NCBI RefSeq assembly: GCF_058153355.1
Contig: NZ_CM177019.1
DNA: 64,000 nucleotides
Direction: 5' to 3' (one strand)
Within the stretch, counting starts at the first letter, position 1; every line of letters begins with the position of its first letter. Positions 48,607 to 48,742 of the stretch are shown piece after piece. Both the position numbers and the translations under genes were made by a program. The notes beneath the pieces are model-generated. The model ran no database searches. It saw only the letters and a list, made by a program, of their open reading frames with translations, and had not been told where the DNA came from.

Positions 48607-48742
48607 CTAAGCAGAGAGTGATTGACTGGACGAATAACGACATAAATTTTTGAAAGGGAAACATACGCTTACTCATCAGACACTTGGTAGTCTTTATCTC
48701 AAACCAGCGTGACTGATGTGTAAGCGTTAAAGTTCGGAGCAA

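Follow-up and report, generated by a model that had tools for sequence, protein, structure and literature searches.

The window, which here means the whole 64-kb stretch of DNA that was analysed, is identical to E. coli 2013C-4282 and carries the phoU-yieH locus with the alternative "Z5211-Z5214" island. The region between phoU and yieH is a polymorphic locus of E. coli that is occupied either by the bgl-yieIJ island or by the AT-rich Z5211-Z5214 island, with Z5211 and Z5214 being about 50% alike (Sankar et al., 2009, PMC2646131). In the window, the genes follow each other in the order pstCAB-phoU, a type III effector gene fragment, a pentapeptide-repeat gene on the minus strand, an effector-like gene of 800 amino acids on the plus strand, the hairpin described in this study, yieH on the minus strand, and adeP. 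The GC content is approximately 30% from about position 43,600 to about position 48,660 and approximately 50% from there on, and the hairpin is located at this step in base composition.

The effector-like gene (46204-48606, plus strand) is a divergent allele whose protein is about 60% identical to EspY4. The 800-aa protein has no Pfam match, and some of its homologues carry a precomputed weak pentapeptide-repeat match (PF13599). Given the protein identity of only about 60% to the common EspY4, the allele of the window is rare and divergent; the hairpin region is at least 99% identical to that of the window in only 17 of the 5,426 complete genomes. A protein search with the effector for distant homologues returned no independent lineage among the 120 matches listed, all of which are family members encoded at loci of this type in E. 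coli, Shigella or E. albertii. The convergent gene yieH (48743-49408, minus strand) encodes a HAD-family 6-phosphogluconate phosphatase. It is unusually polymorphic for a core gene, with 80.6% nucleotide identity to the K-12-type allele, and the yieH of the window is 92-93% identical at the nucleotide level to the B2 and O157 alleles. The divergence of yieH suggests old alternative haplotypes that would reach from the island into the gene.

Position, extent and predicted fold of the inverted repeat

The stop codon of the effector gene ends at 48606 and the yieH stop codon lies at 48743-48745. The hairpin is situated between these two convergent genes, starting 58 nt past the effector stop codon and, seen from the other side, 15 nt past the stop codon of yieH. 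The first-pass annotation had recorded an inverted repeat of two 15-mers at 48665-48679 and 48713-48727 with one mismatch and a spacing of 33 nt; these coordinates proved to be exact, and the mismatch is a T·T. In an inverted-repeat search the arms lengthen to 19 nt (48665-48683 and 48709-48727) with 89% complementarity. The 15-bp arms stand as first described, but the element as a whole is larger, namely a 63-nt stem-loop with an inner helix, TTGGT/ACCAG, which was contributed by RNA folding.

The whole stem-loop (48665-48727, plus strand) comprises 21 consensus pairs, the T·T mismatch, a 2x2 internal loop, a bulged C and a 14-nt loop. The left outer arm ACGCTTACTCATCAG (48665-48679) is invariant across 28 haplotypes of this copy, referred to below as c2, and is the same in the consensus of a paralogous copy, referred to as c1. 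It is followed by the left inner stem (ACAC TTGGT, 48680-48688), in which T48684 pairs as U·G with G48707 and most other haplotypes have a C at this position, by the 14-nt loop (48689-48702), which varies between haplotypes and between the two copies, and by the right inner stem (ACCAG C GTG A with the C bulged, 48703-48712). The right outer arm CTGATGTGTAAGCGT (48713-48727) contains two segregating sites in the 28 haplotypes, one of which leads to a G·U pair on the plus strand, the other being the terminal pair. On the left, an AT-rich spacer (48607-48664) separates the hairpin from the effector stop codon; this spacer departs by 22% from that of other island haplotypes and does not align with c1. 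On the right, 15 nt (48728-48742) separate the stem from the stop codon of yieH, and in this spacer the window is 27% different from the other haplotypes.

The predicted RNA folding energy is -29.9 kcal/mol on the plus strand (z -4.0) and -29.3 kcal/mol on the minus strand (z -4.8). In a scan of the whole window, no other inverted repeat combined 19-nt arms and at least 17 matches with a spacer of 3-40 nt, and 30 shuffles contained none; the repeat is thus more than a product of chance. On the plus strand the stem is followed by UAAAGUUCGG, which contains no U-tract. The tail on the minus strand is AUGUUUCCCUUUC in the window, CUAUUCCC in the common haplotypes, and CUUUUCG or CUUUUUG in c1. 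The earlier remark that no T-tract follows in either direction is thus correct for the plus strand, whereas the minus-strand tail AUGUUUCCCUUUC is pyrimidine-rich; even so, a terminator scan of both strands of 48300-49000 called no terminator-like site, the hairpin included. Two further candidates in this intergenic region were discarded. A possible small-RNA promoter in the left spacer, the conserved motif TGAC..N15..TAAATT, is mis-spaced, was not called by the scan and is missing from c1, and a small ORF starting from an ATG at 48664 on the minus strand is not conserved in other haplotypes.

Distribution, second copy and comparison with K-12-type genomes

The hairpin is present in 1,108 of 5,426 complete E. 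coli genomes, always in the island between the EspY4-type gene and yieH. It occupies at most two places per genome, both of them inside the island, and there is no further copy anywhere else in the window. The search for additional genomic copies that had been proposed in the first-pass annotation revealed a second copy in most island genomes, in which a 73-nt query matches twice, but none beyond the island. In O157:H7, this second copy, c1, is located 4.36 kb to the left of c2 and about 60 nt past the stop codon of a Z5211-type paralogous effector gene. The paralogous effector gene ahead of c1 is often frameshifted.

In all six E. coli loci examined (L004 and L006-L010), c1 is followed by a remnant of yieH. 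In O157:H7 493/89, c1 and the remnant, which is on the minus strand, occupy L004:1725-1918, and the same arrangement is seen in L006-L010 and in L064, the assembly GCA_027567875.1. The remnant consists of the stop-codon region with about 30 nt of the 3' coding end, a deletion, and codons 106-130; the latter show 77-80% amino acid identity in five of the six genomes and 56% in L010, with E-values of about 1e-7. The two copies are about 80% identical over the block that reaches from the hairpin into yieH, and their sequences to the left of the hairpin are essentially unalignable. Since c1 is accompanied by a yieH remnant inside the island, the linkage of hairpin and yieH is older than the present right junction, and the duplicate implies that the island arose through assembly of two effector-hairpin-yieH modules and not by a single insertion. 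Relative to other genomes with the island, about 1.07 kb is missing from the window at approximately 44525-44575; this deletion removed the 3' portion of the first effector gene together with c1 and the remnant of yieH. It is because of this deletion that the window holds only one hairpin. The assembly GCA_027567875.1, which is labelled E. albertii, contains the same phoU-yieH island with both hairpins identical to those of common E. coli haplotypes; its flanking genes are only 83-91% identical to those of the window, and the genes past adeP differ. The island seems to be common to both sides of the species boundary between E. coli and E. albertii.

In genomes of the K-12 and B2 types, the next gene after yieH is cbrB, which has the same orientation. 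The first-pass annotation had reasoned that a repeat also present downstream of yieH in K-12 would be a backbone feature; the K-12-type genomes lack it, and the repeat therefore belongs to the island haplotype. Homology between the window and K-12-type genomes breaks within the last two to three codons of yieH, at approximately 48746-48753. The whole hairpin thus belongs to the variable segment, with the junction about 25 nt to its right. The proposal that the repeat is a recombination scar marking the island boundary does not agree with this position of the homology break, nor with the second copy and the yieH remnant inside the island.

K-12-type genomes possess a strong hairpin of their own, 8 nt past the yieH stop codon, with a predicted energy of -32.2 kcal/mol (z -5.7), and this yieH-cbrB hairpin is found in 4,286 of the 5,426 genomes. 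Local alignments of the island hairpin and the K-12-type hairpin score below the mean of shuffled sequences, and a homology that had been suggested by the columns of a MAFFT alignment was therefore rejected. As judged from their sequences, the two hairpins are analogues and not demonstrable homologues. The occurrence of an unrelated hairpin at the same position in 4,286 genomes indicates that a 3' hairpin after yieH is a recurrent solution. The 3' arm of the K-12-type hairpin (L003:2931-2985, minus strand) contains the Shine-Dalgarno sequence GGGAG of cbrB, the AUG of which is 6 nt past the stem. The K-12-type hairpin could serve both to terminate yieH transcription and to occlude the ribosome-binding site of cbrB. 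A shared 'GLYF' peptide had suggested that a remnant of cbrB lies antisense to the effector gene at its 3' end; this was dismissed, as tblastn gave only chance-level matches (E 13).

Outside E. coli, a single pattern scan across 100,044 species reference genomes yielded no true copy in other species; the only matches were E. coli DNA mis-binned in a Collinsella metagenome-assembled genome and one chance match in Sulfitobacter. Two contigs (L012 and L013) of the metagenome-assembled genome JAIJJM01, labelled 'Collinsella sp.', are E. coli island DNA. No hairpin match was found in phages, and the single match among plasmids is an E. coli chromosome of 4.9 Mb that is catalogued as a plasmid (PLSDB NZ_CP141089.1). 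In E. coli ABW_A19, an IS2 element (L002:3672-5001) interrupts the left arm at its base; the 5-bp target CGCTT is duplicated, and the hairpin is thereby cut off from the effector gene.

Constraint on the arms and strand asymmetry

For the analysis of sequence conservation, 82 copies were pooled. They came from complete genomes and from an unbiased scan of metagenomes with a pattern that took the inner right stem (AAACCAG) and the right spacer as anchors and left the outer arms unspecified. Pairwise differences were calculated from 28 distinct 620-nt haplotypes of c2. The mean pairwise difference is 0% in the left outer arm and 1.4% in the right outer arm; it amounts to 10% in the left spacer, 14% in the half of the loop that was not anchored by the pattern, and 7.5% at the third codon positions of yieH. 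A similar picture is obtained if the window is compared with all other haplotypes, with differences of 0-0.7% in the outer arms, 22-27% in the spacers, 23% in the loop and 35% in the last 231 nt of the effector gene. Given a divergence of 22% in the adjoining non-coding DNA, the probability of 30 unchanged arm positions is about 6e-4. The comparison between the consensus sequences of c1 and c2 leads in the same direction, as the outer arms are identical at 30 of 30 positions and the inner stem and loop differ; at the baseline of about 80% identity between c1 and c2, such an identity has a probability of about 0.001. A gene conversion tract would have to include the arms but not the loop between them, which makes selection the simpler explanation. 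These comparisons show that the arms are under strong purifying constraint.

The two strands of the element differ in the way in which variation is accommodated. With the same 21 pairs, 99.5% of the cells in the alignment are paired on the plus strand and 94.5% on the minus strand. Five of the seven variable pairs on the plus strand vary only between G-C/C-G and G·U/U·G, and the variable pairs on the minus strand comprise six broken positions and one wobble. The consensus structure calculated with RNAalifold has an energy of -25.5 kcal/mol on the plus strand and -17.1 kcal/mol on the minus strand. When both copies were folded, the plus strand was the more stable one in 18 of 25 distinct 83-nt sequences, and among the variants of c1 the plus strand stays at -23 to -29 kcal/mol while the minus strand drops to -18 to -24 kcal/mol. 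Changes that break a pair on both strands are confined to single sequences.

The bias towards the plus strand corresponds to about five events against one, which is not significant on its own (sign test, p ~0.2), and since all of the events behind the G·U bias are C/T differences on the plus strand, a mutational bias could yield the same pattern. Compensatory double changes were found at none of the pairs in the consensus-pair alignment, which thus provides no covariation support. The constraint appears to be stronger on the plus strand, i.e. on the effector mRNA, and the G·U pattern weakly favours an RNA hairpin on this transcript; the conservation of the arm sequence itself would fit a DNA or protein recognition site as well. 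The modest U-richness is found in the tails of the minus strand, in the opposite direction to the G·U bias. In view of these U-rich tails and of the hairpin that is present after yieH in K-12-type genomes as well, it is most economical to assume a role for both transcripts.

Comparison with known elements and interpretation

Intrinsic terminators typically have a GC-rich stem of about 5-14 bp and a loop of 3-8 nt, as opposed to the 21-24 interrupted pairs and the 14-nt loop observed here, and neither tail of the window hairpin contains a U-tract. The element resembles an intrinsic terminator in that it is positioned directly after stop codons and that the minus-strand tail is pyrimidine-rich, with a short U run in c1; it differs in its interrupted stem of about 24 bp, the large loop, the lack of a U-tract on the plus strand, and the terminator scan, which made no call. 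A closer counterpart is provided by the bidirectional terminators between convergent genes of E. coli, which Wang, Watters, Ju and Liu (bioRxiv 10.1101/2022.10.23.513370), summarising Ju et al. (2019), describe as prevalent, hairpin-encoding, unlike intrinsic terminators and Rho-independent. Like these, the element sits between the 3' ends of convergent genes and forms a stable predicted hairpin in both directions that is not called as an intrinsic terminator. In contrast to them, it is a 63-nt element with a long stem, a constraint biased towards the plus strand and an occurrence restricted to the island; the class is defined by transcript 3' ends that overlap at the element and by a dependence of termination on convergent transcription, and the island hairpin is known here from sequence and predicted folding.

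REP hairpins in 3'UTRs act as combined, partly Rho-dependent terminators and mRNA stabilisers (bioRxiv 10.64898/2026.03.23.713779). The island hairpin shares with them the imperfect palindrome without a U-tract, the 3' intergenic position and the same proposed limits on read-through and exonucleases. However, REP and BIME elements are defined by hundreds of dispersed copies with a consensus, whereas the island hairpin occurs in one or two places per genome at a single locus, shows no REP consensus and has a lower GC content. The K-12-type yieH-cbrB hairpin is similar in its distance of 8-15 nt past the yieH stop codon and in its size and stability, and represents the alternative haplotype of the same locus; unlike the island hairpin, it precedes a co-directional gene, cbrB, and its 3' arm holds the ribosome-binding site of this gene. 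A long imperfect stem in the 3'UTR without a U-tract is also found in lambda sib and other RNase III 3' hairpins, a resemblance that is not accompanied by sequence similarity to lambda sib. A search of Rfam 15 at a permissive E-value gave only chance matches (E 3.5-6.7) far below the gathering scores. The possibility of an integron attC site was rejected: the right end, GTTAAAG or GTTGAAG, agrees with GTTRRRY at six of seven positions (the last base is not a Y), the left end has no RYYYAAC, and the neighbouring genes phoU, the pentapeptide-repeat gene, yieH and adeP include no integrase.

On this basis, we regard the element as a probable terminator or stabiliser hairpin without a U-tract at the 3' boundary that the convergent transcripts of the effector gene and yieH have in common, with a probability of roughly 0.55. 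A structured RNA 3' end for both transcripts had been among the options of the first-pass annotation, and it is the one that best fits the predicted folds, the constraint on the arms, the G·U pattern and the lack of any other terminator-like site in 48300-49000; the activity as RNA, via termination, pausing and/or 3'-end protection, is what we infer from them.

Several other explanations have to be weighed against this one. The hairpin may have no present function and be a relic that rides with the 3' flank of yieH, kept uniform by recent spread or gene conversion, which we consider rather unlikely. Such a relic would show no covariation, as observed, its arms could be identical in c1, c2 and even the E. 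albertii assembly as a result of recent transfer or conversion, and four fifths of E. coli do without the hairpin at no obvious cost. However, conversion would need to have affected two 15-nt arms only, skipping the loop, the inner stem and a right spacer that is 27% different; moreover, the probability of about 0.001 for the identity of all 30 arm positions at the c1/c2 baseline of about 80%, and the finding that both-strand pair breaks are seen in single sequences only, speak against a sequence free of constraint. It is quite unlikely that the 15-nt arms are instead a sequence-specific DNA site, bound as a duplex or cruciform by a regulator, a nucleoid protein or a recombinase, which in one version would be the place where effector cassettes were joined to the 3' end of yieH. 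The preservation of the arm sequence itself and not just of its pairing, with zero compensatory changes, would agree with this, as would the fact that in both copies the similarity ends exactly at the left arm while hairpin and yieH are about 80% alike, the location at the transition from 30% to 50% GC, and the IS2 that interrupts the left arm at its base in ABW_A19. Yet a loss of similarity to the left is equally expected of an unconstrained spacer, an arm spacing of 33 bp is unusual for a dimer operator, no recombinase or integrase adjoins the site, the core motifs of attC are lacking, and with one or two copies per genome the element is always at this locus and has no counterpart in phages, true plasmids or the reference genomes of other species. 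More specifically, the hairpin could be a joining or targeting site for the capture of effector cassettes at the 3' end of yieH, a chromosomal analogue of a cassette recombination site that is independent of an integrase or as yet unrecognised. The two effector genes, about 50% alike, are each about 60 nt away from a near-identical hairpin followed by yieH sequence; we nevertheless hold this to be very improbable.

A regulatory processing site in the 3'UTR of the effector, either cut by RNase III in a retroregulation like that of lambda sib/int or giving rise to a 3'UTR-derived small RNA, is distinctly improbable in our estimation. It would explain why the stem of about 24 bp exceeds what a terminator needs, and it is in line with a constraint biased to the plus strand and with the missing U-tract there, but there is no Rfam match, no conserved promoter in the spacer and no U-tail of the Hfq type. 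Terminal inverted repeats of 19-24 nt and a position at the edge of the island could also point to the remnant of a mobile element, i.e. a miniature inverted-repeat element or an insertion sequence reduced to its two ends by an internal deletion. This origin is highly implausible, as the repeat is not dispersed but confined to at most two places per genome, both in the island, with no similar sequence elsewhere in the window and no matches in phages or true plasmids; no haplotype of this single locus has a flanking direct repeat, and the hairpin has neither a target-site duplication nor an adjacent recombinase or integrase gene.

If the terminator or stabiliser hairpin is the correct reading, a polymerase arriving from either side would transcribe the palindrome, and the nascent hairpin would pause or terminate it, by analogy with the bidirectional terminators and the REP-type hairpins in 3'UTRs. 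The hairpin would then become the 3' end of the mRNA and block 3'-to-5' exonucleases, so that the effector transcript would end in the hairpin, and the effector gene and yieH would each be spared antisense reading by the other. The element would in this case be an ordinary one, a 3' insulator between the transcription of a core metabolic gene and that of an AT-rich, silenced effector gene. Its analysis shows that the Z5211-Z5214 island has its right edge within the final codons of yieH, and its near-invariant arms, as opposed to an effector protein identity of 60%, make it a natural test case for the constraint on a terminator without a U-tract.
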